From a virus, in the IMG/VR virus record IMGVR_UViG_3300002141_000152, positions 44,971 to 108,970 of that record: a stretch of 64,000 nt of DNA; one strand, written 5' to 3'. The translations under genes were made by a program, and so were the position numbers. Position 1 is the first letter of the stretch. Each line of letters opens with the position of its first letter. Below the pieces are notes generated by a model. The model ran no database searches and was not told where the DNA came from. It saw only the letters and a list, made by a program, of their open reading frames with translations. Below, piece after piece: positions 44,921-62,530 of this stretch.

Positions 44921-45242
44921 AACACTAATATTTTAATTTATTTATCACTCCCACTCGGCCACTAACTAATAAAATAGAGAAGGTAAAGTGGCAGACAGCC
45001 CTAATAATTCTACTACTCATATTATTATCAACGCTAGAGAGACTACACTAGACCAGAGTCACCCAGCTAGAAGAGACTCGGTAGAACCACCTAGTAGCAG
45101 CCAAGTCAGGTACCTTCACTACGGAGTCCCGGCTACCAAGAGACCGACTAGACCTAGGAGACCCGACACCGAAGGTTACACCTCCACTACGGAGTCCAGT
45201 GACCAGACACTAGTCGGCCATTGACCAGTCACCATACCAGGA

Positions 45243-45304
45243 GTCGCCAACCCTAATACGAGACGGTGGCCAACCTCAATACGAGAAGTCGCCAACCTCA
45301 ATAC
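45243..45304 (+). repeat. three iteron-like direct repeats (~22-bp period)
   Basis: GTCGCCAACCCTAATACGAGA / GTGGCCAACCTCAATACGAGA / GTCGCCAACCTCAATAC. Confidence 0.75.
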
Positions 45305-45486
45305 CTGGCAGCGCCCTAATTTGTAATGCAAAGCGCGGGCGTCCGCCTACTTTCACTACGGAGTCCCAAGAAAAACGCGTGCCACCGACTATCAACACTT
45401 GCCACCTGTGGCATGTTGCTACCAGGTGCTACTCTTTCCAGATTGTGGCATGCTCGGCGGGATAAATAAAAAGAAAGAAGTAACTT

Positions 45487-46176
45487 ATGTACGCAAACGA
45501 AGCAATCGACTTGCTGGGGTGCAGCTATAACGGCCTACGTAAGTGGGGCAGCCGTGGCAAGATACGCCGGTGGAAGGACGACCATGGCAAGTGGATCTAT
45601 AACGACGATGACGTCTGGTCGATGATCGGCAAGCGGGTCTCAAAAGAAAGCCTGACGACCATCTACTGTCGAGTAGCCGGGACTACGGAGTCCGACCGCA
45701 AGGTCATGGCCGAGCAGCAGCGGATACTCCACCAATGGTGCTCTGCTCGTGGACTCTCAGTAGACAGGCAGTACGAGGACTGGGCCCCATCTACGGAGTA
45801 CTCCCTGGAGGAGAGACCTGGTCTGCACCTCTTGCTACAGGATATAATTCAAAAGCGTGTCTCCGCCGTGGTGGTCGAGACTCCTGACAGGCTGGCTCGT
45901 ATTGGTCGAGAGTTGATCGAACAGCTCTGCCGTTACTACGGAGTCCAGCTCGTGTATGTAAATAGGGTGATTCAAAAACCCGAGTACCTAGCCGAGCAGG
46001 AGGCAGATATTCTCAGGCTCCTAAAGAAGGCCAAGATTGAGAGACTAGCTGAGGTTGGTGTCGAGACCCTGCCTAGACCAAAGAAGGTAAAGTTAAAGGA
46101 TCCAGGCAAGATTGTGCCGACTTGGGAGGGTGAACCCTTACCTGCTAATTCGCGAGACTTGAGTGACTTGATATAA
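45487..46176 (+). CDS. IS607-TnpA-like serine recombinase (MerR-type HTH + resolvase fold) with catalytic Ser replaced by Ala
   Basis: EAIDLLGCSYNGLRKW HTH; YCRVAG in place of YARVSS; ERPGL; DRLARIG; no tnpB adjacent. Confidence 0.8.
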   Translation: MYANEAIDLLGCSYNGLRKWGSRGKIRRWKDDHGKWIYNDDDVWSMIGKRVSKESLTTIYCRVAGTTESDRKVMAEQQRILHQWCSARGLSVDRQYEDWAPSTEYSLEERPGLHLLLQDIIQKRVSAVVVETPDRLARIGRELIEQLCRYYGVQLVYVNRVIQKPEYLAEQEADILRLLKKAKIERLAEVGVETLPRPKKVKLKDPGKIVPTWEGEPLPANSRDLSDLI

Positions 46177-46192: not shown

Positions 46193-46687
46193 TTAAAGAA
46201 GAGAGGAATCATGTACAAAGATAAAATCAAAGGTCAGCACAGAGTCAATTTCGCTGTGGCCATAGAGAGCCTGCTGAATTGCAGTGTCTAGGTCTTCCTC
46301 CGCTAGATCACTTGCGATGGTTAAGATAAATTTATAGAGAGGCTTGCCATAGTAAAGAGATCGATACTTGTCGGATCTAGTCCCCTCTGATCCCTCAAAC
46401 TGGACGTCGGAGACGAGACTCCGGTCGACAGTAGAGACGCTGTCTGCAACAAGTTCAACAAACTGGTCGATGTCTATTTCTTCTAGTGGCAAATTGTGCC
46501 GCATGCGAACGCCAAGAGTGACCTTGTACCTCCACTCAAAATCTTCTGATTGGAGTGGAATCCCGGACTCCTTAGCTAGGGTAACGTATTCACTCTTGCT
46601 AATGAGTCCACTGGTTAAGAGGTCACGTAAGACCTGCTCCTCGTCGTCTCGTGATTCCCGAAGATACCTCTTAAATGACTTTAACAT
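46193..46687 (-). CDS. CTS-like leader + SHOCT-like helix protein
   Basis: MLKSFKRYLRE...LRDLLTSGLISKSEY. Confidence 0.6.
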   Translation of the reverse strand: MLKSFKRYLRESRDDEEQVLRDLLTSGLISKSEYVTLAKESGIPLQSEDFEWRYKVTLGVRMRHNLPLEEIDIDQFVELVADSVSTVDRSLVSDVQFEGSEGTRSDKYRSLYYGKPLYKFILTIASDLAEEDLDTAIQQALYGHSEIDSVLTFDFIFVHDSSLL

Positions 46688-46706
46688 TGACTATTAGTTA
46701 TTTTAA

Positions 46707-46733
46707 TTATTTATCCAGGGCGCCCTATAAATA
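46707..46733. promoter_or_regulatory. back-to-back T4-type late promoters
   Basis: ATAAATAA on minus and TATAAATA on plus (46726-46733), separated by the palindrome AGGGCGCCCT. Confidence 0.6.
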
Positions 46734-46748
46734 AAAATAAAAAAGGAA

Positions 46749-46898
46749 ATGGCCAAGAAATCCACCAACTCTGCCACTGCTACAGCAGTCAGGGTTAAAG
46801 TTAAGAAGAAGAGACCGGGTGTACACTCGAAAACCAAGTGTGATGTGAACAAGCGAAGCAAACACTGGGTCAAACTGAGTAGAGGACAGGGTAAGTAA
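46749..46898 (+). CDS. 49-aa very basic protein ending RGQGK
   Basis: Not in ORF track: MAKKSTNSATATAVRVKVKKKRPGVHSKTKCDVNKRSKHWVKLSRGQGK; late promoter upstream. Confidence 0.65.
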   Translation: MAKKSTNSATATAVRVKVKKKRPGVHSKTKCDVNKRSKHWVKLSRGQGK

Positions 46899-47186
46899 TC
46901 CAGTTCTTCAGTCCGTTATTTAGAAGGGAGCCTCAGACGGGACTCCCTTCGCCAGTTATATTGATACTTTAGTTGAGGGTCGGAGTCACTCCTGTGTCGC
47001 GAGTTGAGGTGACTTTAGGTACTGAGCCGGCTGGAAAAGTGTCTCTACGCCAGAGTGGTCTGGGCTCCATGGCTGCGGGTGAGTCCAAGGCTCCCGCGGG
47101 CAGGGGATTTGCCAGAGACCCGACCGGCGCCACTAGCCAGAGACGCTAGCACGCACCCGCCTGCGGGGAGCCGTCCCTTACTCCAT

Positions 47187-47214
47187 AAAAAAGCCCGCGA
47201 TTAAGCGGGCTCTT
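47187..47214 (-). terminator. intrinsic terminator
   Basis: AAAAAAGCCCGCGATTAAGCGGGCTCTT on the + strand. Confidence 0.7.
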
Positions 47215-47233
47215 ACGGTCGTCAAACCAATAC

Positions 47234-48415
47234 CTACAGTGTCGCGAATTGTGCGAATTGCAAGTCGTATCCGTCCTTAGTACCTTTACCGAAAAGGTGT
47301 CCAGCTTGTTCTTTCAATTGGTGTTTGTTCTCCAATTGCAGGCCGGAATTGTTGGAACCAAGGAATGTCATTGAGTTTACCACGTCCCAAATACTTTGGC
47401 CGGTCTTGATAAAGCTCTTCTGCTTATCGTTCAATCTCATTGGGTCTTGTCCTTTGCGTACGATACGTCCCATAGTCTCAGCATGTGAGTGGAAGTATTT
47501 ACGAGCAACGGTGTCGATGAATGCTTTCTTCAGGGTTGGGTCGTCTTCTCGAACCATTCGTTGTGAGCTAATCATGGCATTCTCGACTTCAAGCAAGCTT
47601 GCTTTTGTATTCACAGCGGACTCTAGTGCGGTGTTGAAACCTACCGGAATAAAACCAGCTTTATTCATTGTCTCAATACGTCCAAGGAAATTCTTAATAT
47701 CGTCGGCACTTGTTCCACCTAGGCGAAACTTCTCTTCGAAATTAATATCACGGTTTGCACCGATCGCACCTTGTCCTAAGCTTACACGAAGTCCATTGCT
47801 ACATACCAATCTCTGATTGTACATTTCAACTGTCGTGTCTTTAGAAGACTGAATAATCGAGAAACCAAATTTAAAGAACTCGTCTTTACCGGCTCCAGGA
47901 AAACCTACCTCTTCTCCATTCAGCAAGTTGATAACTGTTTTTCCACTATGTGGATTGAAGTCAATTGTCTCGATACTTAAGTTTGAGTTACCATTCATAA
48001 TACGAGATGTCATATCAAAAACAGTTTCATTGGTCATTCTACGAAAACGTTTAGGATCGCAGATGTCAATAATTTCGCGACTTGTTGGGCTAGCAATCAA
48101 CATGATTTCTGTACCTCCATGCGCTTGACGATAGGATTTCAAGCCATTCAATAAACTTGTAGCAATCTTGCCGTCCTCGTTCTTAATCATCTCACGAGTT
48201 AAGGACTGATTTACCTTTAGCATTCCTGCTAATTTTTGAAAGAATCCTTGGCCAACAGGTACAGCTTGTCCGCTGACGTTGATTGTTCCTCGTGCGATGG
48301 AGTTGTCGTCCAGCTCGATTGCGCCTAGTGGCACGGTTTTTGTAATACACTCAGCTTTTGCGAGTGTCTCGCGAATCTGTTCGAATTCGTGGTCTGATAC
48401 TTCTTTTTTTGCCAT
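47234..48415 (-). CDS. DUF932-like protein
   Basis: RLVCSNGL motif and WDVVNSMT. Confidence 0.5.
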   Translation of the reverse strand: MAKKEVSDHEFEQIRETLAKAECITKTVPLGAIELDDNSIARGTINVSGQAVPVGQGFFQKLAGMLKVNQSLTREMIKNEDGKIATSLLNGLKSYRQAHGGTEIMLIASPTSREIIDICDPKRFRRMTNETVFDMTSRIMNGNSNLSIETIDFNPHSGKTVINLLNGEEVGFPGAGKDEFFKFGFSIIQSSKDTTVEMYNQRLVCSNGLRVSLGQGAIGANRDINFEEKFRLGGTSADDIKNFLGRIETMNKAGFIPVGFNTALESAVNTKASLLEVENAMISSQRMVREDDPTLKKAFIDTVARKYFHSHAETMGRIVRKGQDPMRLNDKQKSFIKTGQSIWDVVNSMTFLGSNNSGLQLENKHQLKEQAGHLFGKGTKDGYDLQFAQFATL

Positions 48416-48496
48416 GATAAGATTTTTTTTAAATTGGTTTGACTTAATTATAATACTAAAAACTTACTACATTTTAAAACTATTGTATACAAATAT

Positions 48497-49612
48497 TTAT
48501 TCCTGTTTCGCAGGTTCTTCTACGGAGTCCACCGTTTCTGGCTTCTTAGTAAGGAAGATTTCTTCAAACTTACGAGTCAGGTCGTGTTGGCGTATTGACT
48601 CCTTGTTCTCAATCTTATTCATCTCCTCACTTTCAGTGTATCGTTCTGAATCGTAAACTACTGCACCCTGTTTATCAAGCGTGTAATATAATCTCTTGTT
48701 TACTCCGCCACCACCTCGACGATTTTTTGAAAACTCAACATATCGATTACCACTTAGGTCAAAACGAATTTCAAGCATGGCAGTCGTTGCGTGTTTTAGG
48801 TAGGTGCTACCGACATAGGTACCTCCTTTGGTCATGTGTTGAATTGCCAAGACCGCGCAGCCATCTTTTTCAGCAGCAGTAATCATCATGCCAGTTAACC
48901 AAGACTCGGCTTGCGTTGATTTCCATTGCTGTGCTTCTTTCAATTTTACTAGAACATCTTGGTAGGAGTCAAGCACAATAATATCATAACCTCCATTGAA
49001 GGCTACCGATAATACTTCACTCAGCTTTCCGTTAGCAATATAGTCCATCAGCAATAGTGTTGGTACCTTACCGATTGATGGAGTTTTCTTGTAGTAAAAC
49101 AGGATATCATTACGGGTCATTTCACTTGATATATAAAGTATCTTTGCCTCAGGATTGGTGTCCTGTACAGAAGAAAGAACGTCTAATAAGATAGTCGACT
49201 TGCCGACACCCGACTCACCAATTACAATATTAACAGTTCCACCATAGACTCCACCGCCAGGTTCATGGTCCGAGAAGAGGTCATCGATCTTTTTGCCAGT
49301 CTTGTGCAACTTGAATTCAGGAAAGACGAGGTCTTCTACTTTAATAACGTTCGGCACGATTGGGACTACGGAGTCCAGCTCGACTGCACTCACATCAGTT
49401 TTGGTTTCGCGCACTCCGCCTTCTGCTAGGATTTTCTTCAGTACTCCATTAAAGAGTCCATACGAAACTTCTTCATCGAGTGCAGCGCCGACTCGATTTT
49501 CAAAATCGATAAATGAGTCTAACACTTTACCTCGCGGTACCTTGCCGTCGTGCGACTTGTTAATCCATCGACGAACACTCTGTTCTTTTTTACCGCCCTT
49601 AATTTCTATCAT
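48497..49612 (-). CDS. RadA/Sms-like RecA-fold ATPase
   Basis: GESGVGKST, LYISSEM, VLDSYQ, HMTKGG..VGSTYLKH, KNRRG. Confidence 0.75.
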   Translation of the reverse strand: MIEIKGGKKEQSVRRWINKSHDGKVPRGKVLDSFIDFENRVGAALDEEVSYGLFNGVLKKILAEGGVRETKTDVSAVELDSVVPIVPNVIKVEDLVFPEFKLHKTGKKIDDLFSDHEPGGGVYGGTVNIVIGESGVGKSTILLDVLSSVQDTNPEAKILYISSEMTRNDILFYYKKTPSIGKVPTLLLMDYIANGKLSEVLSVAFNGGYDIIVLDSYQDVLVKLKEAQQWKSTQAESWLTGMMITAAEKDGCAVLAIQHMTKGGTYVGSTYLKHATTAMLEIRFDLSGNRYVEFSKNRRGGGGVNKRLYYTLDKQGAVVYDSERYTESEEMNKIENKESIRQHDLTRKFEEIFLTKKPETVDSVEEPAKQE

Positions 49613-49676
49613 AGTTTTAGATTTTATTGGTTTGACTTAATTATAATACTAAAAAACTGAAGATTTATAAAACTTA

Positions 49677-50165
49677 TTACAAACTTTCTTTTGACAATTC
49701 ATCAAGTCTAATGCGCTCAGTATTTGATAAATTAGTAAGACCTACCTTACTGACAAGATCGAGCAACTGATCTAGCGATAGCTTCACCTCAACTCTAGCT
49801 TCTACTGGAATATCCTCAGCTAGGGGTTCAGGTGTCGTGCCTTTCTTAATCTCCCGAGTCAGTAACTCAAATGCCTTACTTACAGCTGGTCCAAAGTCTT
49901 CGGAATTTATTGCAAAACCGGGAGAAGTCGTGTCCATTACAAGTACAGGTAGCCTATCGCCGGTTCCCTTGCCGACTTCATAGAATCCTTCGGCTATCTT
50001 TGTCGGGCTCCAATCAGTATAGATTAAAGTTATCATACCCTTATTTGGAACTGGTATGCCGAGTGCTAGGCGAGCGTTGCAGCCTGCAATTGCGGCAAGC
50101 AGTGGCATCTCATTACCGACAGGTGCGTCCTTGCCGAACCTGAATATTAGAACTATTCTTTTCAT
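49677..50165 (-). CDS. hypothetical protein
   Basis: C-terminal LDQLLDLVSKVGLTNLS..E...L helix pair. Confidence 0.55.
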   Translation of the reverse strand: MKRIVLIFRFGKDAPVGNEMPLLAAIAGCNARLALGIPVPNKGMITLIYTDWSPTKIAEGFYEVGKGTGDRLPVLVMDTTSPGFAINSEDFGPAVSKAFELLTREIKKGTTPEPLAEDIPVEARVEVKLSLDQLLDLVSKVGLTNLSNTERIRLDELSKESL

Positions 50166-50170
50166 ATTAT

Positions 50171-50518
50171 TTAGAATTTATAAAGTAAAATAACTCTATT
50201 GATAAAATTATCAAAGTCATCTTTTGTAATTTGATCAGGTCTCACTGGATAAGGATTGAGGCACATCATCATGTCTCTCTCTTCACGTGCAGTATTTGCT
50301 GCAGTTGGATATGGTGTTGCATCGTGCCATAATTGTACTAAATCCTGATCATAATAGATTACGACAATTGGTGGCTCTTGATCTGGAATCGGATTTGGAC
50401 TAACTGAACACTGGAAAAAGTTTCCAAACTCTTCATCTGGGCCATTCTCTTGCGCGGAATCAAGATCGATTAATAGATCTACTCCAAATAATTCTTGTAA
50501 TTTAGTGTGGGTTGTCAT
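50171..50518 (-). CDS. early hypothetical protein
   Basis: Directly downstream of a repeated promoter. Confidence 0.55.
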   Translation of the reverse strand: MTTHTKLQELFGVDLLIDLDSAQENGPDEEFGNFFQCSVSPNPIPDQEPPIVVIYYDQDLVQLWHDATPYPTAANTAREERDMMMCLNPYPVRPDQITKDDFDNFINRVILLYKF

Positions 50519-50584
50519 GTGTGTTTAAGTTTTAATATTGAGTAAATGTAATAAATTAGTTTGACACTAAAAAATCGGGGCAAA

Positions 50585-50809
50585 TTAAAACCAGCTCTTA
50601 CAATTATAGCATTTAGATGAGTCATCTACTTTGTATGCGCCAATTCTCCAAAACCACTTTTCAGTATTTCCTGGGTCAACGGCCGATGCATATACTTCGC
50701 GCGCTCCACAGTGTGGACACTGCAGCCCCTGTTTGTCAGGCTTCTCTCCGCATTTTTCAATAATTGCAGATTTAATTGATTCTTCTAAAATCTCAGATAG
50801 TGTATCCAT
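50585..50809 (-). CDS. small Zn-ribbon protein
   Basis: CPHC...CYNC. Confidence 0.55.
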   Translation of the reverse strand: MDTLSEILEESIKSAIIEKCGEKPDKQGLQCPHCGAREVYASAVDPGNTEKWFWRIGAYKVDDSSKCYNCKSWF

Positions 50810-51021
50810 ATGTCTTGTTTTTAATGTTAAGTAAATATAACTACTTATGTTGACACTAAAAAATCGGGGCAAAATATTTTTTTCGCCGCGAGTGGGTCTC
50901 TATCAGAGACGCGCCCAGCGCACGCCGAAAGCAGAGACGCCACGGATCCACTCGCGGCCGGTTTTTTAAAACAAAAAAAGCTCCAATCTCTTGGAGCTTT
51001 TGATAAGTCAGTATTTAATTG

Positions 51022-51420
51022 TTATTCAATTAGGGTTTGTGGATTACGATTATTATATGTTGCAAATACCCATTTATCTTCCTTAGTAAGAAGATACCCA
51101 TACTCTTCAATATCTCCATGGAAGAATTCATCAACGCTTGCATGATCGGCGGCACCTGTTCCTAACTCTCCACGGTCACGATGATATGCAACAACTACAC
51201 CACCTTGTGGGTTAGAAAATGAATGCGGACCTGTCGGGGATATCTCTTCGCTAAGTGAGGATATATCACCTAACTTAATTAGGGCTCTAACCTTCTCCCG
51301 ATCAGTGTAAAAGTTATTTAGGATTCTACCATTATGGTCAAGGTAGCCATCGTTGTGGCAGTAAATAGATTTAACCTTTCCGTCTGGTAATTCGATTGCG
51401 ATTCTGCTTCTTGTTGACAT
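51022..51420 (-). CDS. conserved phage early hypothetical protein
   Basis: MSTRSRIAI...SIYCHNDGY...AYHRDRGE. Confidence 0.6.
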   Translation of the reverse strand: MSTRSRIAIELPDGKVKSIYCHNDGYLDHNGRILNNFYTDREKVRALIKLGDISSLSEEISPTGPHSFSNPQGGVVVAYHRDRGELGTGAADHASVDEFFHGDIEEYGYLLTKEDKWVFATYNNRNPQTLIE

Positions 51421-51480
51421 AACTTATAGTTTTAATGTTGAGTAAATATAACTAGTTAGTTTGACACTAAAAAATCGAGG

Positions 51481-51903
51481 CTAATCTTTATTATTAAATA
51501 TTACTTCAAACAATCCTTTTGAATTAATTTGGATTGGAGTTCCAGTATATTGAAGTAATGCTTTCTTCAAGGAGGAAACAGACTCTCTACGCTCACGACT
51601 TTCCAGTGACCATTCATCATTATCACAGGCATCAATCATCTTGGTTTTAACTGTCTTAGTTAATTTAGCACCGCTGTGCAAGACAGCTACTGCCAATACT
51701 TGCCATGCAATCTCTGGCTGGTAATCGGCATGTCGCTTCACCTCAGCGATAAATGCTTTCATGTTCTTCTCTACCGCTTCCTTTGAAAGAGTGGCTATTC
51801 CGCCAGACATTGGAAATTTTTGTACTTGTGCAATTTCGAAGAATGTATCTTCTACATCGAGCGGACTATCTCCACCCATGATATCGGTTGACCACCATCC
51901 CAT
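51481..51903 (-). CDS. early hypothetical protein
   Basis: 140 aa, starts MGWWS. Confidence 0.55.
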   Translation of the reverse strand: MGWWSTDIMGGDSPLDVEDTFFEIAQVQKFPMSGGIATLSKEAVEKNMKAFIAEVKRHADYQPEIAWQVLAVAVLHSGAKLTKTVKTKMIDACDNDEWSLESRERRESVSSLKKALLQYTGTPIQINSKGLFEVIFNNKD

Positions 51904-51973
51904 AGTTATTTGGTTTTAGATTTATTAGTAAGTATTTCGATTTATAGAGTAAATATAACTAGTTAGTTTGACA

Positions 51974-52255
51974 CTAAAAAATCGGGGCAGACTTTCTTTT
52001 CTCTTTATAGTATTCAGCCGTAACTTCTTCCTCTACTAATTTTCCAAACATCCACTTCTTGGTCCGGGTCAGACTCTCTATTCTAGCACGTGAAGAACGA
52101 GCAGATCTGTTTTTAAGGTCTTCGATCGTTGCATCAAGAACTCGAATATGGGATTTCAAATATATTATATTGTTAATACATTGAAGTCTTAAGTCCACCC
52201 AATCAATTTGTGGTGGAGGTGCTACCGGTTTCTTCCTGAATATCCCAAATATCAT
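51974..52255 (-). CDS. hypothetical protein
   Basis: 93-aa ORF. Confidence 0.5.
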   Translation of the reverse strand: MIFGIFRKKPVAPPPQIDWVDLRLQCINNIIYLKSHIRVLDATIEDLKNRSARSSRARIESLTRTKKWMFGKLVEEEVTAEYYKEKRKSAPIF

Positions 52256-52485
52256 TATCGTATTTTTCTAATTACCGCAATTACACATCCTGTACTGTCC
52301 TTTGCAAGGAATAACATTCCTTTATTATAGGAACGCTGGTTTTCCCAATTCCATTCAATCGGAGTTCCATCACACGTTGTGGCTGGAATATCCGCAGGTC
52401 GAGTTGGGTGATACGGGTCAATTTCTGGTCGGCCATCATTGCATGAGGCAATAATTAATCCAACAAATAATAATATCTTTTTCAT
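52255..52485 (-). CDS. putative lipoprotein
   Basis: MKKILLFVGLIIASC lipobox. Confidence 0.55.
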   Translation of the reverse strand: MKKILLFVGLIIASCNDGRPEIDPYHPTRPADIPATTCDGTPIEWNWENQRSYNKGMLFLAKDSTGCVIAVIRKIR

Positions 52486-52527
52486 ATAGTAAATATAACT
52501 AAATTTGGTGAAACAAAAAAATCGGGA

Positions 52528-52794
52528 CTAATAAATTTTTACTGTAATAATTGTGGCTGAGTGTCCAATACCACTACTCTGCTTCACAGTCACTGCACCA
52601 TTCTTTTTAATTAGGTCAAGCACCTTACGATATTTCAAATCAGGCTTGGTGATTCCGCCTAGGAACTTTGCTATCTCATAGGCTTTAGCTATCGTGTGAC
52701 AGATTCCCATAGACTCTTGCAAAGAGTTTTCCCAAGCGAGACCCACTCGCGGCGGAGCATCAGATATAATTACGTATTTTGTATTTTTTGGCAT
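52528..52794 (-). CDS. hypothetical protein
   Basis: 88-aa ORF. Confidence 0.5.
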   Translation of the reverse strand: MPKNTKYVIISDAPPRVGLAWENSLQESMGICHTIAKAYEIAKFLGGITKPDLKYRKVLDLIKKNGAVTVKQSSGIGHSATIITVKIY

Positions 52795-53078
52795 TCAATA
52801 ATTTTCTGTTTTAAATTAAGTATAAAAGCACAATCTTCATACTCTTCCACACCTTCAAAATATTTCAGCAGTGACTCTAACGCTTTTATCTTCTCAGCAG
52901 TTGGCGCATCATCGTCAACCGCAAGTTCAGGATATTTCTTTAGTGCAGCTAATATCATCTTCATAAAAGCCGCTGGGTCCTTCTTCTTAATATCGTTTAA
53001 GGCTCGGATCAGTTCTTCATCTCTTAATGGGTTCATCTTACTACGGAGTAAAGGGTTAATACTTAGCTTCAAACTCAT
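52770..53078 (-). CDS. protein with UVR-like helical hairpin
   Basis: LLKYFEGVEEYEDCAFILNL. Confidence 0.5.
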   Translation of the reverse strand: MSLKLSINPLLRSKMNPLRDEELIRALNDIKKKDPAAFMKMILAALKKYPELAVDDDAPTAEKIKALESLLKYFEGVEEYEDCAFILNLKQKIIECQKIQNT

Positions 53079-53505
53079 TTGCTTGACAGACGGCCAGATA
53101 TTCAGCCACTAACTTCGGCCACTGTTCTCGATAAAAATCTTCTGACTCTGTCCTCTTATTCATTATAATACATGATTCATGCGATAAGTGAAAGACTGCG
53201 TGTCCTAGTTCATGATACACGGTACACATAGTCGAGTATGGTCCGGTTGCAAACTGTCTCCTATCTACGATAACCGTCTTTGTAGTAGAGAATCCAACAC
53301 GGTCTCCGTTGAGGTTACCTACCTTCACCTCATCGACTCTATTAAAACCATTAGTATAGTCTATACCCACTCCAACCATTTCATCTTGCCACTTTTTCAC
53401 GATTGGTTTAAGGGTTACGTTTACTTGCGGTGGTGCTGTGTCTCTATCTATGGTGAACGAAATACCGACGGTCACTAGTAGAAGTAGGATTACGATTAGT
53501 TTCAT
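53056..53505 (-). CDS. secreted zinc metallopeptidase (metzincin-like)
   Basis: Signal-like N-terminus; HELGHAVFHLSH...IM. Confidence 0.7.
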   Translation of the reverse strand: MKLIVILLLLVTVGISFTIDRDTAPPQVNVTLKPIVKKWQDEMVGVGIDYTNGFNRVDEVKVGNLNGDRVGFSTTKTVIVDRRQFATGPYSTMCTVYHELGHAVFHLSHESCIIMNKRTESEDFYREQWPKLVAEYLAVCQANEFEAKY

Positions 53506-53780
53506 ATTATTTTATCTAAGAGTAATGCTGCACTTATCTCTGCGGCACGCATCGCAGCTGAGTCTAATCCGTGTTCTAATTTAATTCTTTGGAATAGGGC
53601 TTCATATCCATCTGTGATATTGACATACTTCTTCATCAGTCGAATATCTTTGGCTAGATACTCTTTACATACATCTCGATAGACTGCAGTTGCTTCAAAC
53701 AAGCGAAGTACAGCTTCGTTATCTAGTTGGGTTGGGTCAACAAGTATCTCGTCTTCCCCATCAAATATTAATACCTTCAC
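53502..53780 (-). CDS. hypothetical protein
   Basis: 92-aa ORF. Confidence 0.5.
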   Translation of the reverse strand: MKVLIFDGEDEILVDPTQLDNEAVLRLFEATAVYRDVCKEYLAKDIRLMKKYVNITDGYEALFQRIKLEHGLDSAAMRAAEISAALLLDKII

Positions 53781-53792
53781 CTTACTACGGAG

Positions 53793-54509
53793 TTAAATAA
53801 CTTCTTTCATTTTTTGTATAGCACTCTTCACGATTTGTGATACTCTAACATTCGTTATATCGAAACGCTCAGCGATAACATCAGTCGGTAGTTCACAGTC
53901 TCGACCAATACCGAAATAGGCAGATACGATATTACGATCGCGTTCTTTAAGTACGCCCAACACTCTGCGAATCGTGTATTGCACCTGGTCTACTTCCATT
54001 TGAAACTCGGATTCATGTGGAGTATTAAGTAGAATATCTCCAATTGTGGTGTCGCTGTCGACTGAAATAGGTGCATCAATTTCAACAGTCGACAAGTTTG
54101 GTGTTTCTATTCCAGCCATCTTAGCTTTATAGATATCGTACTCCTGATTATGCGGTAGTCGAACAATACGACCGTGTGCAACGACTGCTTCATTAATACG
54201 CTTGCGTACCCATAATCCAGCGTAGGCTACAAATCGCGTATTGGATTTAGGTTCGAACCGTTGTGCAGCTTCGTATAATCCAATATTACCTTCTTGTATG
54301 AGGTCATCGATTGGAACTCCTTGGCCAACGTGCCGATTTGCAATAGTCACAACTATTTTTAAGTTGTGCTGCACCAATTTATGGATGGCAGCCTGGTCTC
54401 CGGCTTTAATACTGAGTGCCAACCCTTTTTCTTCTTCGATTGTAAGTGGATTCATTTTAGAAATCGACTTAAAATACTTTGGTAAATTGTCTGATGTTTC
54501 GAATGACAT
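53793..54509 (-). CDS. sigma70-family RNA polymerase sigma factor
   Basis: LVQHNLKIV, DLIQEGNIGL, RFVAYAGLWVR, RIVRLP, region 4 HTH RVSQI. Confidence 0.9.
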   Translation of the reverse strand: MSFETSDNLPKYFKSISKMNPLTIEEEKGLALSIKAGDQAAIHKLVQHNLKIVVTIANRHVGQGVPIDDLIQEGNIGLYEAAQRFEPKSNTRFVAYAGLWVRKRINEAVVAHGRIVRLPHNQEYDIYKAKMAGIETPNLSTVEIDAPISVDSDTTIGDILLNTPHESEFQMEVDQVQYTIRRVLGVLKERDRNIVSAYFGIGRDCELPTDVIAERFDITNVRVSQIVKSAIQKMKEVI

Positions 54510-54575
54510 AGTATATAGTTTTTAATGTTAAGTAAATGTAACAAATTAGTTTGACACGAGAAAATCGGGGCTCAC

Positions 54576-54755
54576 TTATTTTTTGCAAGTCTCTGGCGGT
54601 ATTTCAGTGTCGATACTCTCCATTGGCTTGCCAGTCATAAGTACGTTCACGCATTTCCAGCAAACCACTGCAGTTACATCACTGTTTACGTTCTTAACTA
54701 TCTCGCCGCATTCTTTACAAGCAAGATCCTGTGGTACTCTTTGTTCAAATGACAT
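54576..54755 (-). CDS. 59-aa Zn-ribbon protein
   Basis: Manual translation MSFEQRVPQDLACKECGE...VVCWKC. Confidence 0.5.
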   Translation of the reverse strand: MSFEQRVPQDLACKECGEIVKNVNSDVTAVVCWKCVNVLMTGKPMESIDTEIPPETCKK

Positions 54756-55002
54756 ATCCTTTAGATTTTAAATGATTCATAATTTATCTTTAATATTATA
54801 TCATAAAAGTAACCAAAAGTTCTGACCTGATAAAATCGGGGCTCACTTATTTTGAGGATGAAAAACCAGAGACACAGTAGGAGTCTGCTAAGCAGACGTC
54901 TGGCCACCAGAGACCCCGTTAATCCCCTCCTTTTCCAGTGGGTTAAACAAAAAAAAGACCCCAATTTCTTGGAGTCTTTTCAATAAGCTAAGCAATTATT
55001 AA

Positions 55003-55275
55003 TTACTTGCGTTTTCCTACTAACTCATAAGCAACATTTGCAATTCTTCCACATGGATTTTTACGTTCTCCACGGATTACTCGAGCAACGTGTGATGCGT
55101 CATATCCAGTAATTAAGGAGATTGTCGTTAAGTCACCATGACGTAATTTTTTTTTCGCGATTGATAATTTCTCACCTGCGGATTTTCGTCCAGACTTTGA
55201 AGTAGTTGATTTAGTCGCGGTCTTCGACTTAGCTTTCGCAGAAATCGGTGTTACTCTAATAGATGTTTTTCTCAT
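55003..55275 (-). CDS. small basic HTH DNA-binding protein
   Basis: Lys/Ser-rich tail then ISLITGYDASHVARVIRGER. Confidence 0.55.
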   Translation of the reverse strand: MRKTSIRVTPISAKAKSKTATKSTTSKSGRKSAGEKLSIAKKKLRHGDLTTISLITGYDASHVARVIRGERKNPCGRIANVAYELVGKRK

Positions 55276-55544
55276 AATAAAAAGATTATTTTTTTGTTTA
55301 ACTTAATTATAATACTAAGTATTTAGGTAAACATAAAATATTCCGATAATTATTTCTTGGCGGTGCCATCAACAACCGCTCCAATAAACTTAATTACCTG
55401 GCCGGCTGCAAGTCTGGTCTCTGAAAACCAGTGAACATCTTTCTTCTTGTGTGTGTTATCCCAAAGGACACATGCAGTAAGAGCAAAGAATATAAATGTA
55501 ATACCTAGGAATATCGTTTTCATATTATAATAATACTAATAGGT

Positions 55545-55868
55545 TTATAATTGTTTCTCTAAATCGATTAGAACACTACATAACTCGTATTGTTCGCTGT
55601 CTGTAAAATACGTTAAACAATCCTGCAACCAGCGTGGGTACTCGTCTCTAGCAATGTTCACTACGGAGTCCGAGTCTTTTACTGCAAATGCAGGTACTAT
55701 CGATAGATTCCCTGTGATACCATTATATAGGGCTGAAAGAAATGCAGCGTGTACTGCAGCATGCTCTCCTTCCATGAATTCTTTAATATCTCGGTATGGA
55801 GAAGCATCTAACTCTGGAATTTCAAAGTCAGTATCTAATTCTTCGACATACTGAATAATATAATTCAT
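55545..55868 (-). CDS. protein with UVR-like helical hairpin
   Basis: CLTYFTDSEQYELCSVL. Confidence 0.5.
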   Translation of the reverse strand: MNYIIQYVEELDTDFEIPELDASPYRDIKEFMEGEHAAVHAAFLSALYNGITGNLSIVPAFAVKDSDSVVNIARDEYPRWLQDCLTYFTDSEQYELCSVLIDLEKQL

Positions 55869-56119
55869 CGCTTCTTCTTTTTATTATTTATAAGCTCAAG
55901 CTCTTCTGCCCAGTCCATTAACTGTACGTTATCTTCAGCCCACTCCTTTGCACCAGCCAGGGTCTCATCGCGTTCTGTCCTAGGCACGAGCTTGTCAGTA
56001 ACAGCAAATAGGGTATAGATACCGGTTACTTTATCTTCACGATTAAGCCGTATCCATACCACTCCGCGGTTGCATGTGCCGCGTACATGTCTCTCTAATA
56101 GGGGTTCCCAACGAATCAT
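55865..56119 (-). CDS. hypothetical protein
   Basis: 84-aa ORF. Confidence 0.5.
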   Translation of the reverse strand: MIRWEPLLERHVRGTCNRGVVWIRLNREDKVTGIYTLFAVTDKLVPRTERDETLAGAKEWAEDNVQLMDWAEELELINNKKKKR

Positions 56120-56454
56120 TTTCTATTTGGATTTAATTCGTATATATGTACTTCTTTTATTGCGGCCGGTGGGATTCTCTTAGGACTTACCAGCGACTTT
56201 CCCACACCAAATATTGTAACCATTATCGGGCTGTGATCTGTGCCCTCAATTAATCTGGAGGGATCGACTTCCACTTCAATAATCGCCATATACTTTTCTC
56301 CCATCGCTGCAAATCTAAATCCCATCCAGCGCATTGCACTCTCTGCAGAATCAGTTAGGTATACTCCTTCCCACTTAGATATTAATCCTTCCATTTTAAT
56401 GCGATCAACATTATCTACGTGAGTTGCGTGGAATAGTCTTACTTTCTTGGCCAT
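56116..56454 (-). CDS. ADP-ribosyltransferase-fold protein (Tpt1/KptA-like NAD-binding half)
   Basis: LFHAT...IKMEGL...GVYLT...IPPAAI. Confidence 0.55.
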   Translation of the reverse strand: MAKKVRLFHATHVDNVDRIKMEGLISKWEGVYLTDSAESAMRWMGFRFAAMGEKYMAIIEVEVDPSRLIEGTDHSPIMVTIFGVGKSLVSPKRIPPAAIKEVHIYELNPNRK

Positions 56455-56457
56455 GGC

Positions 56458-56640
56458 TTAGTAATTTAAAGGTTCAATCGTTGGCACGTCTCTTACAATC
56501 ATCCACTGGCAGTTAGATAAGCTATACTCTAATACACCTTCGATAAACTCCTCAGCGTCCATCGTGTTGGAATCATTTATACCTAGTAGATATAAGCATT
56601 CTACTTTACCTGTTTCAAAATTTAGGATAACTGCATACAT
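56458..56640 (-). CDS. small early hypothetical protein
   Basis: Has its own promoter copy. Confidence 0.5.
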   Translation of the reverse strand: MYAVILNFETGKVECLYLLGINDSNTMDAEEFIEGVLEYSLSNCQWMIVRDVPTIEPLNY

Positions 56641-56672
56641 AATATATAAGTTTTAATGTTGAGTAAATATAA

Positions 56673-56933
56673 CTAACTAGTTTGACGCGAGAAAATAGGG
56701 GCAATAATTTGTTCCACCTTTTCTGGATTCTGGTCAAACCACTCAATGAGTCTCCCAAACTCGGATAAACCCAGGTTCGACCGCATAAAGTCAAACACTC
56801 CATCGTAGTCTTCCATACTATAGAAACCAGGAGTATCGATATACTCGTCTCCCATTATTTCGCGAAGCTGACCTTCACCAGTGGCATCGATTGCAATTAA
56901 AAATTGCTCTAATCTATCTTTTACTTTTCCCAT
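56673..56933 (-). CDS. hypothetical protein
   Basis: 86-aa ORF. Confidence 0.5.
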   Translation of the reverse strand: MGKVKDRLEQFLIAIDATGEGQLREIMGDEYIDTPGFYSMEDYDGVFDFMRSNLGLSEFGRLIEWFDQNPEKVEQIIAPIFSRQTS

Positions 56934-56938
56934 TCTAT

Positions 56939-57226
56939 TTAAGTTTTAATGTTTGCTGTGAACTGTTTAATTATTTCTTCTAAATCTTCAATTACGGCAC
57001 CTGCCTTACTGCATCTCAATAGTGCAATATCAAATACAATATCATTATCTGCAGTTTGCTGTATTGCCCAAAGATATGTTCTCACAAACTCTGAACCTTT
57101 TTTGCTCTCCGGTTTTAAGTCAAGCATTGCTAAACCTCCTTGAATACGAGTAAGATGTTTTTGTAGATTCGGTGCTCTAACTGTTTGGTTGTGCACCTCT
57201 TGTTCTGTTGGAATTTTTGTCATCAC
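56939..57226 (-). CDS. early hypothetical protein
   Basis: Has its own promoter copy. Confidence 0.5.
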   Translation of the reverse strand: MMTKIPTEQEVHNQTVRAPNLQKHLTRIQGGLAMLDLKPESKKGSEFVRTYLWAIQQTADNDIVFDIALLRCSKAGAVIEDLEEIIKQFTANIKT

Positions 57227-57311
57227 TTTAGTTTTTAAGTTTTAATTATAGAGTAAATATAACTAATAGCCCCGACCTGTAACAATCGGGGCTAGAATAT
57301 TTACTACGGAG

Positions 57312-57947
57312 TTAAGCTGCTAATTGCTTAGGGTCAACTGGGCCAGACATCCATGCTCCACGGCGACCGCTCATCTTCGTCGGGTACCAACTGTATAACT
57401 TCTTTAAGATTAGTGTTGCTTCTTTCTGGAATTCGCGCAACTCCCGGTTCCATCGCTTCTCTGCAAGTTTGTCAATTGCTGCCGCAACACTCTTGCCTCT
57501 AGCATCATACCATGCTCGACGGTCTTCTAATTCAAACTCGGCATCCTCTAAAAACGTTTCGAATTTAAAAGTCGGAATTACCGCAATTGGAAGGTGCGAG
57601 TATTCTGCACTCGTCTCAGTAATAACGTATACTCGTTGACCTTCTGCTAGGATAAGACCCTCATTTCGAAAGGCACTGGATAATTCTTCATATCCATTGG
57701 CTCGAGATTGCAAGTCCCATGGGGTCAATCTTAGTTCTGATGCTAGACACTCTGCCAGGTCTTCGAAACCAAACTCAGACTGTTGGTCAACCTCCGCATA
57801 AACATCATCATCATCTGGTTCTTTACCAAACTCTTCTGCAAGTCTTTCTTTCACCGAGTCAAAGTCCTCGCTGAGGTCAATAAAGTAAGTGTTGGGTTCG
57901 AACTTATCATTGTCGAACGATCGTAAGTGTGGATTGCCTGCGCCCAT
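57312..57947 (-). CDS. acidic early hypothetical protein
   Basis: 211 aa; own promoter copy. Confidence 0.55.
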   Translation of the reverse strand: MGAGNPHLRSFDNDKFEPNTYFIDLSEDFDSVKERLAEEFGKEPDDDDVYAEVDQQSEFGFEDLAECLASELRLTPWDLQSRANGYEELSSAFRNEGLILAEGQRVYVITETSAEYSHLPIAVIPTFKFETFLEDAEFELEDRRAWYDARGKSVAAAIDKLAEKRWNRELREFQKEATLILKKLYSWYPTKMSGRRGAWMSGPVDPKQLAA

Positions 57948-58010
57948 AGTTTTGTAGTTTTAGTTTTTAATTATAGAGTAAATGTAACAAATTAATTTGA
58001 CACTAAAAAA

Positions 58011-58214
58011 TTACTGTAAATATATTTTTAAACATTTTTCACATCCAATGTGTTCTACGTTTTCAATTCTAGCATGGTTTGAACTTAACATTGGTGTTCC
58101 ACACAACGTTGTTCCACTAAATGTACCTGCTTGGGCAATGTGGGCTGTGTTGCTCCAAACATTTCCTTTGTTGCCGAACATGTAAAAATTTTCTTTTAAG
58201 TCTGCTGTTTTCAT
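58011..58214 (-). CDS. small His/Cys early protein
   Basis: AHI...TLCG...CEKC. Confidence 0.5.
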   Translation of the reverse strand: MKTADLKENFYMFGNKGNVWSNTAHIAQAGTFSGTTLCGTPMLSSNHARIENVEHIGCEKCLKIYLQ

Positions 58215-58442
58215 CTTTTATAGTTTTTAATTATAGAGTAAATATAACTAATTAGTTTGACACGAGAAAATCGGGGCACAAAAATTATCTTGTCCCTGGC
58301 CAGATCGAACATCTCTGTCAGAGACTCTTCCCAGCCATCCGTGGATTTGGTCAAAAAAAAGACCAGCAATCGCTGGTCTCCTTAGGTCAATTTCTTGGTG
58401 GCGGCACCTTTACCCGGCCGTGACCCGCACTTAGGAAGCTCT

Positions 58443-58652
58443 TTATGCTTCGATAATGTCCGCTTCGCTAACTTCGAATGTAAAAATCTCAAAGTCTTCA
58501 TCAATCGTTTCTTCGCTATACTCATACTCCAGTAACAGTTCGCGTGTACACTTCTCAGCATGGTCCATTGTTTCGGCCTTGATGTGGAAGATAATTGGAC
58601 TGCGGAATGTTCCTTGGAAATCTGTAACTACTGTGCAAAATAATCTTTTCAT
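58443..58652 (-). CDS. small acidic early protein
   Basis: Start MKRLFC after promoter copy. Confidence 0.5.
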   Translation of the reverse strand: MKRLFCTVVTDFQGTFRSPIIFHIKAETMDHAEKCTRELLLEYEYSEETIDEDFEIFTFEVSEADIIEA

Positions 58653-58721
58653 AATTTCTAGTTTTAATTGGTTATGAAGTAAATATAACAAATTAGATTG
58701 AACTCTTAAAATCGGGGCAAA

Positions 58722-58952
58722 TTACTTAATGTTTCTATCCGGTGGGTGATATAATTCTTCTAATTTATCTAAAACCTCACTCGAACTATCCGCATCATGG
58801 TGTAATATAATATCTAGAATGATTTCACGCCAAGTGGTTGGCTCCTTTGTAACACTAACCTCCTCTGGTCTTAGCGCACGTTGCGCTTCTTTGTATGCTT
58901 CAAATGTCCCATATTCATCTAAAATTTCTTGATATTTTTCGTTTGAGTTCAT
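58722..58952 (-). CDS. hypothetical protein
   Basis: 76-aa ORF. Confidence 0.5.
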   Translation of the reverse strand: MNSNEKYQEILDEYGTFEAYKEAQRALRPEEVSVTKEPTTWREIILDIILHHDADSSSEVLDKLEELYHPPDRNIK

Positions 58953-58974
58953 ATATTTTTTAAATTTTTATTTA

Positions 58975-59283
58975 CTAATTTAGGTCAGATGTATCTGGAA
59001 TCATACACGCTCCAAATTCACTTACTCCGCTTGCTGCGACTTCCGATATAAGTGCCATTGATGCTGTTAAAAATCTGTACAAATCTAATACTTCTCTACG
59101 ATCCTTTACAGACAGTCGTGAAAATGCTTTACTTACTATAAACTCTTCCTGTTCAGATATTTTCATCTGCATTTCAATCAACGTTGCTACTTTCGACCCA
59201 GGAATAATTTGTGGCATTTCATCTTTAACTCTAGGTTTACGTTCTGGTTTATCCCAGCTACATTTGAATCCTACTTTGCTCAT
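58975..59283 (-). CDS. early hypothetical protein
   Basis: Has its own promoter copy. Confidence 0.5.
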   Translation of the reverse strand: MSKVGFKCSWDKPERKPRVKDEMPQIIPGSKVATLIEMQMKISEQEEFIVSKAFSRLSVKDRREVLDLYRFLTASMALISEVAASGVSEFGACMIPDTSDLN

Positions 59284-59480
59284 AGCTTTATATTTTTAAT
59301 TAGTTATGATGTAAATATAACACATTAGGTTGACACTAAAAAAATCAGGAGAATAATAATTTAGCAGAGACCCACTCGCCCGGCAGATGTCAAGCTGCAG
59401 TTCAGCTAAAACAAGAAAGGAGCAGATACCTCTGCCCCAATCCCGAACTTAAACCATGCTATTACTACGGAGTAAACCGG

Positions 59481-59735
59481 TTATTTTCCTTTTGCATCAT
59501 TATATAGCTGTGCAGCCGTATCATAATCAAAATTTGAACTGAGTATTGCTCCTATCTCCATTGAGAAATTGGTATGAAAAAATTTTAGTGTCTTTGGTGT
59601 TGTGTTTACGTATGGAATTACAGTGTGCAGCACACGCATCCGCTCTCTGATTCCTAGCTTCTTTAGGTAGCTTCTTACCTGCTGCTCAGCTCCTGTCTGT
59701 AGGAGGTTGCTTATTTGTATTGGGCTCATTCGCAT
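59481..59735 (-). CDS. hypothetical protein
   Basis: 84-aa ORF downstream of the tRNA-like RNA. Confidence 0.5.
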   Translation of the reverse strand: MRMSPIQISNLLQTGAEQQVRSYLKKLGIRERMRVLHTVIPYVNTTPKTLKFFHTNFSMEIGAILSSNFDYDTAAQLYNDAKGK

Positions 59736-59759
59736 AGTAGTTTAGTTCAACCTATAGAG

Positions 59760-59877
59760 TAGTCAGGACAGGATTCGAACCTGTATTTACACTTTACTTG
59801 TATTAGCTGTGTCCGATAGATTGGGTATCAATACATTTCCCTCACTACCTGCTCTTAACCATTAGAGCTACCTGACT
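59760..59877 (-). ncRNA. tRNA-like RNA, 118 nt, with expanded anticodon/variable region
   Basis: AGTCAGG-TA-GCTC-TAATGGTTAA-GAGC D arm, ~65-nt insert, ACAGG-TTCGAAT-CCTGT-CCTGACT-A. Confidence 0.7.
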
Positions 59878-59902
59878 ATTTAATTATTATACTAACCTTA
59901 GT

Positions 59903-60181
59903 CTAATCATTTATAAAAAGAAATTTAAACTCGGCAATTACTGGCGTCTTGCCTCTATACCACCAACCTGCAATATCCTCTCCACTATCTGACGAGTCTA
60001 CCTTAAATCGGGTCATCTTTACCTGACCTCCTGTTCTAGGATTCTTCACATAGATCGGGGCTCCTTCAAAACATAGGTTAGTAATTTCAAAGCGAGTCTG
60101 CTCTAGGCTAGACAGCTCTGCGACAAACGTTCTGTCTGCTGGGTCAAATGTAATTGCTGGGTGTGTTACGTCTATTATCAT
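59903..60181 (-). CDS. early hypothetical protein
   Basis: Has its own promoter copy. Confidence 0.55.
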   Translation of the reverse strand: MIIDVTHPAITFDPADRTFVAELSSLEQTRFEITNLCFEGAPIYVKNPRTGGQVKMTRFKVDSSDSGEDIAGWWYRGKTPVIAEFKFLFIND

Positions 60182-60383
60182 AGTCTTTCGGTTTTTAAGT
60201 TAAGTAAATATAACTATAATCTTTGACATAATAAAATCAGGATAATAATAGTGCATCCGCAGCCAGTGCCGGCGTGTGAGTCTCTACCTAAAAAGCAGAG
60301 ACACTCTTGCTGGCGGCCTAGCGGGTGGACAAAGAAAAAGGCGGGAACCACCCCGCCTTTTGCTAACTTAAACTTAAAACTAA

Positions 60384-60806
60384 CTAACCAAAAACTATCT
60401 TCTTATAAAATACTGTTTGAATAATACAGTCTGCTGTGTCTGCATCATCTCGCTCTTCAATCGCATCCATCAAGTGGTGGATAGGAGTTTTTGCAACTCG
60501 CGAGTGCACATCCTTTAGGGTTATCTTCTTATCTCCAACGGCGTTCTCTTCGTCTACCATGATAAGGGTTCCACCGGTTCGTAGGATTTCCATCCAAATA
60601 TCTTCGCAGCATATTCGGGTCATCTTCTCTCCACATGAGTCAATTGCAGTTCCTGCTTTCATCTTTGTGTGAAGACTCTTCTTCGCAAGTTTATAATCCT
60701 TTTCAGAATAATCTAGGTGTATTCCATAATATCTGATTTGGCTGCCGTTACATAACGCATTGTGGAAATGTTTTTCGGCTTCTGCTTTTTCTAATACTAT
60801 TTTCAT
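60384..60806 (-). CDS. early hypothetical protein
   Basis: C-terminal DADTADCIIQTVFYKKIVFG. Confidence 0.55.
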   Translation of the reverse strand: MKIVLEKAEAEKHFHNALCNGSQIRYYGIHLDYSEKDYKLAKKSLHTKMKAGTAIDSCGEKMTRICCEDIWMEILRTGGTLIMVDEENAVGDKKITLKDVHSRVAKTPIHHLMDAIEERDDADTADCIIQTVFYKKIVFG

Positions 60807-60868
60807 GGGTTTTAAGTTTTAATTATAGAGTAAATATAACTATTAAATGTGACACTAGAAAATCGGGG

Positions 60869-61216: not shown

Positions 61217-61295
61217 AGGTCAAGTTTTTAATGTTAAGTAAATATAACTAAAAACCACCAAGATAAAAAATCCTGGTGGCCAAAGTTATGAACAA

Positions 61296-62129: not shown

Positions 62130-62130
62130 G

Positions 62131-62346: not shown

Positions 62347-62530
62347 AGTCTTTAGGTTTTTAAGTTAAGTAAATATAAAACAATTATTCCACACCCAAAA
62401 ATCAGGGCTAAAATTATTTTTTAGCAGAGACGTTTCACACGCCGGTCAGGTAACACTCTTACTACGGAGTAGACATGAAAAAAGGCCGGATAAAAATCCG
62501 ACCTCTAATCAACTTAAACCTAATGTTCTC

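Follow-up and report, generated by a model that had tools for sequence, protein, structure and literature searches.

A single-copy gene related to the IS607-family transposase TnpA, whose product has lost the catalytic serine, was found at the edge of the early-type gene block of a lake-water T4-like jumbo phage, beside an array of a 10-bp motif whose copies all point the same way. Judged by sequence comparison, the gene product is supported as an exapted homolog of IS607-type TnpA that lacks the catalytic serine and is under purifying selection, and the motif is a DNA-level signal in which co-orientation is selected, and not a promoter or RNA signal. The serine-less protein may be the reader of the motif and may bridge its co-oriented copies; this reading, drawn by analogy with IS607 transposases, is held tentatively, at slightly below an even chance.

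The window, i.e. the whole stretch of 64,000 nucleotides analysed, comprises bases 44971-108970 of a 108,970-bp IMG/VR virus record with an estimated completeness of 43%; positions given below are those of the window. The sequencing runs containing the record, used as Logan contigs, i.e. assembled sequence, were aquatic, freshwater or lake metagenomes, and close relatives were taken from metagenome contigs. The phages carrying the gene are uncultured freshwater T4-like phages of about 250-270 kb. No matches were obtained in Rfam (gathering threshold) and tRNA scans of the window, nor in a blastn comparison of the early-type block with deposited phages. The gene lies in a GC-rich island (52-57% versus 34%) at a compositional boundary. 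Capsid-leader-type paralogs flank this island at 43930-44920 and 46193-46687 (- strand; starts MIKSFKQWINE and MLKSFKRYLRE), and their presence on both sides argues against an assembly chimera at the step from 34% to 40% GC near 45000.

The gene under study is the following.

45487..46176, + strand: serine-less IS607-TnpA-like gene, 229-aa ORF, characterized with Pfam, NCBIfam, AF2 and Foldseek.

An earlier reading, made from the sequence only, had assigned to this ORF the IS607 TnpA layout of N-terminal HTH, resolvase domain and DRLAR, and Pfam, NCBIfam and the DRLAR residues agree with it. The Pfam Resolvase match (PF00239) had an E value of 1.9e-12 and 47.9 bits against a cut-off of 23.3, the HTH_17 and MerR matches were weak, and the NCBIfam IS607 transposase model NF033518 scored 92.8 bits, under its equivalog cut-off of 110. 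Together with the AF2 model (pLDDT 76), from which the secondary-structure limits were taken, and the Foldseek matches, these give the IS607 TnpA domain order of a MerR-like winged helix (residues ~1-50), a resolvase domain (fold at ~56-160) and a helix-E region (helix E at 165-189). Residues 190-224 form a disordered yet conserved tail, followed by a short C-terminal helix ending in DLSDL(I/M). The best Foldseek matches were the catalytic domains of IS607-type TnpA proteins 6DGC, 3ILX, 3LHK and 6DGB, with TM scores of 0.70-0.76 on the target. A two-copy complex prediction for residues 1-192 scored 0.26 (mark 0.42) and counts neither for nor against any reading.

The changes at the active site were also read as first noticed. 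Codon 64 (45676-45678) is GCC, encoding Ala, in YCRVAG, where the IS607 family has Y-x-R-V-S, and EDWAPST stands where the family usually has ED-x-GSG. DRLAR is kept, and R62, R135 and R138, i.e. the arginine and the D-R-x-x-R of serine recombinases, are invariant or nearly so. The end of the tail loosely resembles SLDFLFG, the clamp-binding end of T4 gp43, and the tail might bind a clamp; a gp45 homolog was not found in this and four related records with T4 gp45 or PF02916, and the PF02916 control also gave no match.

The protein collection contained at least 120 homologs, which are 47-96% identical and differ little in length. Position 64 was Ala in 94 of the 114 aligned members, Gly in 9, Thr in 7, Asn in 2, and Val and Pro in one each (Ser 0/114), and Y60, R62, V63, G65, T66 and the DRLAR arginines were invariant or nearly so. 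Pairwise dN/dS values of close relatives were 0.10-0.30. The winged helix was the least conserved domain, with a mean frequency of the commonest residue of 0.64 versus 0.79 in the catalytic domain. It was also mosaic: the first ~40 codons (45487-45603) could not be aligned with the N-terminal alleles of the loci L056 and L053, the rest of the gene being 86-90% identical in nucleotides in those close relatives (example starts MYANEAIDLLGCSYNGLRKW, MYIDEAMELLGITYNTLKGW and MLVRETMKVLNKSYATVRRW). In a further relative, 72% identical (L057, 1805-2491), the frame ends at 104 aa although all 229 residues are matched by tblastn. A frameshift or an error of assembly may account for the early stop; this locus has an intact motif array of 11 copies.

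The absence of tnpB, likewise noted at first reading, was corroborated: a single resolvase domain was found in the 109-kb record and in each of five related records, of which two are 94% and 100% complete, and a TnpB Zn-ribbon domain in none of them, the control for the latter being positive in 8 of 14 genomes. The order TnpA-like gene, 393-aa gene, ATPase gene and sigma-factor gene was kept across at least three clades, down to 28% identity of the TnpA-like protein. None of the marks of a mobile element, i.e. defined ends, tnpB, or variable location or copy number, was found, the gene being single copy and in fixed synteny. Ser was kept only in distant homologs (25-34% identity) of unrelated phages, which have Y-x-R-V-S and whose loci are without the motif.

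The GC-rich island at a compositional boundary would fit a decaying or recently inserted IS607 copy, as would the Ser-bearing IS607 TnpA genes present in other phages, but the family is large, with intact ORFs of constant length and dN/dS values indicating constraint, and synteny and promoter are conserved over clades down to 28% identity, in single copy and without tnpB. This reading is refuted by the conservation data and retains next to no probability. The claim of a domesticated TnpA therefore holds: serine loss, absence of tnpB and an oriented repeat, which the sequence-only reading had proposed to look for together in homologs with dN/dS below 1, do co-occur, and the contrary case that it had named, close homologs keeping Ser within complete IS607 elements, was not seen.

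The surroundings of the gene are listed below.

44988..45460, no strand assigned: non-coding spacer, GC-rich (52-55%) and C/A-skewed, with a late promoter on either side (the two divergent), holding 3 motif copies.
45461..45468, + strand: late-type promoter element GATAAATA, 26 nt before the ATG.
46193..64000, - strand: one-direction gene block with the dispersed array, running off the contig end.
47234..48415, - strand: 393-aa syntenic neighbour, DUF932-like as a lead only.
48497..49612, - strand: 371-aa AAA_25 / RecA-DnaB-like ATPase, syntenic neighbour, from domain match and synteny.
53793..54509, - strand: phage sigma-70-family factor inside the block, with regions 1.2, 2 and 4 (phrog_351, E 1.7e-43).

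The late-type element seen upstream at first reading was confirmed. GATAAATA was invariant in 10 relatives, and its spacing equals that at the capsid-leader late genes; NATAAATA stands ~26-28 nt before the start of many genes, including those with T4-type capsid-targeting leaders. Such a promoter suggests that the TnpA-like protein acts late in infection. The spacer was fast-evolving except for the motif. The 22-bp repeats reported earlier do exist, at 45241-45304, but were not conserved in relatives and, on this comparison, probably do not belong to the system.

In the window's clade the TnpA-like gene is convergent to the block of small one-direction genes and stands at its end; the block measures 19-25 kb in relatives where it lies wholly inside the contig. 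The sigma-70-family factor was syntenic in all clades examined. Small block genes are fronted by a ~70-nt intergenic cassette, present in at least 18 copies between 50511 and 63930 (- strand; e.g. 51415-51492, 58203-58289 and 60800-60891), with the order GCCCCGATTTT ... GTGTCAAACTAA ... GTTATATTTACT ... ATTAAAAC, ~10 nt and ATG. In one DNA run (X4), contig joints link cassettes of this kind over distances of 0.4-10 kb, a pattern suggestive of modular shuffling or of assembly jumps at them. Another upstream element, TTTTTTAGTATTATAATTAAGTCAAACCAAT, with a sigma-70-like TATAAT, is common to the 393-aa and ATPase genes (48390-48459 and 49626-49683, - strand), suggesting a promoter class different from that of the block cassette.

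Further observations concern the region between the gene and its neighbours. A very basic 49-aa ORF (46749-46898, + strand) with a late-type promoter TATAAATA at 46727 lies between the capsid-leader gene and a GC-rich element. This element, a conserved non-coding core at ~47040-47125 (- strand) in a GC-rich gap (46900-47185) downstream of the terminator of the 393-aa gene, is common to relatives down to ~50% protein identity; the consensus structure predicted for it is modest, 5 of its 17 pairs having compensatory changes, and it has no Rfam match. The deepest contigs of two lake metatranscriptome runs sit on the 393-aa gene (47240-48664), which indicates presence in RNA libraries and not expression level. 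Contigs of the two runs were found on block genes and none on 45335-46668, a result uninformative on the transcription of the TnpA-like gene.

The motif CTACGGAGT occurs in 16 exact copies in the 109-kb record, all of them on the + strand between 45119 and 63346 of the window, and is absent from the first 90 kb of the record. The copies are the following.

45119..45127, + strand: copy 1, upstream cluster, exact match.
45187..45195, + strand: copy 2, upstream cluster, 68 bp past copy 1, exact match.
45356..45364, + strand: copy 3, 131 bp before the ATG, place conserved in most relatives.
45683..45691, + strand: copy 4, intragenic, codons T66-T67-E68, at nt 197 in every W-clade locus examined.
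45791..45799, + strand: copy 5, intragenic, close relatives only.
45936..45944, + strand: copy 6, intragenic, close relatives only.
48520..48528, + strand: copy 7, 3' end of the ATPase gene, exact match.
49366..49374, + strand: copy 8, variable linker of the ATPase gene; in the G004 ortholog, roughly this place holds an inverted copy.
53041..53049, + strand: copy 9, intergenic, orthologous place in 5 genomes.
53785..53793, + strand: copy 10, right after the sigma-factor stop codon, orthologous place in 5 genomes.
55661..55669, + strand: copy 11, within an ORF, exact match.
57304..57312, + strand: copy 12, intergenic, by a terminator and promoter cassette, exact match.
59465..59473, + strand: copy 13, intergenic, before a terminator, exact match.
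61648..61656, + strand: copy 14, exact match.
62462..62470, + strand: copy 15, intergenic, after a terminator, exact match.
63346..63354, + strand: copy 16, intergenic, exact match.

The three intragenic copies, one of them beside the active site, and the three within 370 bp upstream that had been noted at first were all found, the latter spanning 131-368 bp before the ATG, and the array extends well beyond them, to the contig end. The 16 copies compare with 0.22 expected, and none of 100 shuffles reached 16; one-mismatch variants were at chance (4 extra versus ~5.6 expected). The core is the 10-mer ACTACGGAGT on the sense strand of the gene, its final T being present in 85% of copies; it is near-palindromic, with the asymmetry confined to the four central bases. 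Neighbouring copies lie 0.06-3.7 kb apart. The three intragenic copies fall in three different reading frames of the TnpA-like gene, so coding does not explain the motif. A hairpin was also considered and rejected, flank complementarity being no better than base frequencies predict.

The 9-mer was the top strand-biased word in 8 of 8 viral-contig loci with a serine-less homolog and was missing from each of the 32 loci whose homolog bears Ser. Eight related records together held 112 co-oriented copies versus 1; in whole related records, copies on the same and the opposite strand numbered 14/0, 6/0, 17/0, 16/0, 18/1, 16/0 and 9/0. Where both edges were inside the contig, the copies were confined to 19-25 kb of early-type genes, with the gene and the densest motif cluster at the edge of the block; as in matS or parS systems, the site is limited to a single domain of the genome and has a nucleation cluster. 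Copies 9 and 10 kept their orthologous places in five genomes in which flanks and neighbouring genes had diverged. Gene and array co-occurred in every record spanning the array edge; one 140-kb record (G008) held 9 co-oriented copies and no detected gene, its contig start cutting the array exactly at the expected place of the gene. Viral contigs scanned for a 14-mer gave mostly chance matches, and in one unrelated lineage of small phages the 9-mer serves as a ribosome-binding region, which is judged coincidental.

One lineage (G004) is informative on what is selected. Its gene order (TnpA-like, 393-aa, ATPase, sigma) is unchanged, and all 16 motif copies are inverted relative to the genes, the inverted copy in the variable linker of the ATPase reading G-T-T-E-S where the window has D-S-V-V. 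This inversion of the whole array indicates that mutual co-orientation at the DNA level is what is selected. It contradicts a transcription- or RNA-level signal of the early block (sigma-factor promoter, processing or translation site), which would be suggested by the motif standing on the sense strand of all block genes in the window's clade, often close to terminators, just past stop codons or 2-7 nt ahead of a start codon, and by the sigma factor encoded within the block. The block also has its own conserved ~70-nt promoter cassette at other positions, the motif has neither a -10 or -35 partner nor a hexamer at fixed distance, its order relative to terminators varies, and the copies inside the TnpA-like gene are antisense. 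A promoter was rejected on the own cassette, the missing partner hexamer and the antisense copies of G004, and a signal at the RNA level is hardly credible.

A more distant syntenic clade was recovered by a search with the neighbouring ATPase (~50% identical) and comprises one 253-kb record and records of 270-271 kb, one of 271 kb having direct terminal repeats (complete). Its TnpA-like gene is 28-31% identical, in the same place and on the same strand, and has mostly Ala and rarely Ser at the nucleophile position. Its motif, ACTAGGGAGT, differs in one central base; in five records 55 copies stand on one strand versus 1 on the other, within 8-11 kb. Two to five copies, phased 57-58 bp apart, lie 100-400 bp upstream of the gene in a spacer that is GC-rich and C/A-skewed; next comes a late-type promoter, and one more copy lies inside the gene. 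A motif cluster 130-400 bp upstream of the gene was found in all clades, the array being confined to 3-10% of the genome. The two motif variants are mixed in some lineages (L232, L234), and L235 combines the recognition helix of the distant clade with mostly the C-type motif. With the same arrangement in a deeper clade, gene, upstream cluster and dispersed polar array make up one old module.

The position of a recombinase gene at the end of a direct-repeat array among small co-oriented genes, with invariant active-site arginines and DRLAR and a near-invariant G65-T66 in the window's clade, would also suit an active recombinase with a non-canonical nucleophile, e.g. T66, exchanging cassettes in the early region as in an integron. 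T66 is absent in G004-type and distant clades, however, so that no hydroxyl residue of this loop is conserved across clades, and the residue at position 64 is free to be A, G, T, N, V or P, and rarely S. The serine-to-glycine change abolishes IS607 transposition (PMC6188088). Segments between motif copies are orthologous and not swapped, and the contig joints in DNA runs lie at the ~70-nt promoter cassettes and not at motif copies; an integron-like cassette array was rejected because breakpoints did not fall at the sites. An active recombinase is accordingly considered very improbable.

In IS607-family TnpA, the N-terminal winged helix is required for DNA binding, several short motifs internal to the transposon ends are read at ~10 bp per unit, binding starts by nucleation and spreads from there, and two segments of DNA are paired in parallel by dimers (PMC6188088). 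From this family behaviour, together with co-location and co-occurrence, the TnpA-like protein would be predicted to bind CTACGGAGT. In the mechanism proposed, the exapted TnpA would have lost the serine nucleophile and retained winged helix, resolvase fold and helix-E region. It would be made late in infection, and each winged helix would bind one copy of ACTA(C/G)GGAGT. Binding would nucleate on the dense cluster beside and inside its own gene, and dimers would pair scattered co-oriented copies in the adjacent early-gene block, as TnpA dimers pair transposon ends in parallel. Such pairing would fold or occlude the early-gene DNA domain without any cutting.

A serine-less TnpA would keep the binding and pairing of IS607 without cutting, which fits the 10-bp site, the nucleation cluster, which lies where the IS607 left end would be, the co-orientation and the whole-array flip; the inversion within an unchanged gene order, in particular, fits parallel synapsis. 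Of the earlier proposal of a non-cutting TnpA organising the array, the serine loss, the exaptation and the place beside a polar array stand, and the organising role keeps the tentative grade given above. Against this mechanism, the winged helix is least conserved and mosaic in close relatives although the motif is invariant, copies are 0.06-3.7 kb apart versus ~10 bp in IS607 ends, the residues of the recognition helix do not change cleanly with the motif variant, and canonical phage IS607 loci have no similar motif upstream of tnpA. Any particular purpose, be it silencing or early shut-off, recombination exclusion, packaging, terminus synapsis or an origin, is less probable than the reading role as such. 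The fuller version, in which the late serine-less TnpA pairs co-oriented 10-bp sites and folds the early block into a closed domain, is rather unlikely as it stands; if true, the closed domain might be silenced, shielded from recombination or presented for packaging, and the phage would have a counterpart of MatP/matS in which site orientation matters and sites vary by lineage.

Another protein of the block could be the reader. More broadly, the motif may be read by another factor or process, such as a nicking enzyme, a Chi-like or translocase signal, or priming, with the serine-less TnpA at the block edge having some other role, e.g. at its own upstream cluster only or in docking a partner through the conserved tail. 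Strand-specific nick sites occur in T5 and phiKMV-type phages. A motif that is exact, with one-mismatch copies at chance, strictly one-stranded and present in coding and non-coding DNA alike is typical of enzyme-recognition or polar signals. The poorly conserved HTH beside a constrained catalytic domain and C-terminal tail points the same way, as does the tail itself (190-229), disordered and with conserved short motifs and the gp43-like DLSDL(I/M) end. It would leave unexplained why the gene is in every case flanked and entered by the densest cluster, whose copies are phased at 57-58 bp in the distant clade, and why gene and array co-occur in every record with an array edge; for a Chi-like signal, confinement to 3-10% of a circularly permuted genome would be odd. 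Such a reader is rated unlikely, though it is a serious contender.

An origin module was likewise considered, with the copies as iterons, the TnpA-like protein as origin binder, the AAA_25 protein as helicase, and the dispersed copies serving titration or handcuffing. In the lambda origin the repeats lie inside or beside the O gene, which is the gene of their own binder, and the repeats here are placed in the same way relative to the putative binder; the phased 57-58 bp array adjoins a strongly skewed GC-rich stretch, and a RepA/DnaB-like AAA_25 ATPase is a fixed neighbour. The late-type promoter, common to structural and capsid-leader genes, implies the wrong timing for an initiator, the copies are spread over 8-25 kb, and an AT-rich unwinding element was not identified. 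An origin is regarded as improbable.

Catalytically dead exapted transposases are well documented in eukaryotes; to our knowledge they are rare in bacteria and phages, and we know of no described example from the serine recombinases. Full-text literature searches found no paper on a serine-less IS607 TnpA family, and the motif strings appeared there only in unrelated primers and in no phage-context paper. A serine-less TnpA is conserved here over a wide group of uncultured freshwater T4-like phages. The system would be an exapted transposase with a cognate repeat. Whatever reads the motif, the array, which is strictly co-oriented, limited to a small part of the genome, retained at its orthologous places and, in one lineage, wholly inverted, constitutes a genome-organisation signal. 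The exact 10-bp motif, with its natural one-base variant and orientation flip, is a predicted ligand that is directly testable with purified protein.

IS607-family TnpA is the closest to the 229-aa protein both in sequence family and in fold. IS607, IS1535 and ISC1926 TnpA (6DGC, 6DGB) have the same winged helix followed by a resolvase fold with helix-E region, and the motif cluster just upstream occupies the place of the IS607 left end. Unlike IS607 TnpA, the protein has neither serine nor tnpB nor IS ends, is single-copy and syntenic, and in the window's clade has an added conserved C-terminal tail; IS607 has ~10-bp tandem units within 70 bp, whereas the copies here are tens of bp to kb apart over 8-25 kb. 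The RAYT/REP systems are alike in having a single-copy domesticated transposase flanked by a short repeat that is also dispersed elsewhere. RAYTs, however, are IS200/IS605 TnpA proteins with an HUH tyrosine and keep their catalytic residues, in contrast to a protein from the serine-recombinase superfamily without serine nucleophile, and REPs are hairpin-forming and genome-wide, whereas the flanks of the motif here are complementary only at chance level and the motif stays within one block. PeSL cassettes of T4-type phages are also repeats in the plastic early-gene region of T4-like genomes; their counterpart here is the ~70-nt promoter cassette, from which the 10-bp motif is a separate and independent repeat. 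MatP/matS, ParB/parS and the P1 or lambda iterons share with this array a short site restricted to one domain of the genome, where a nucleation cluster is accompanied by outlying copies, and the bridging or spreading proposed here would be a further likeness. The sites matS and parS are palindromic and their polarity is not selected, whereas the present array is co-oriented, and the candidate reader, unlike those of the MatP and ParB systems, derives from a transposase.
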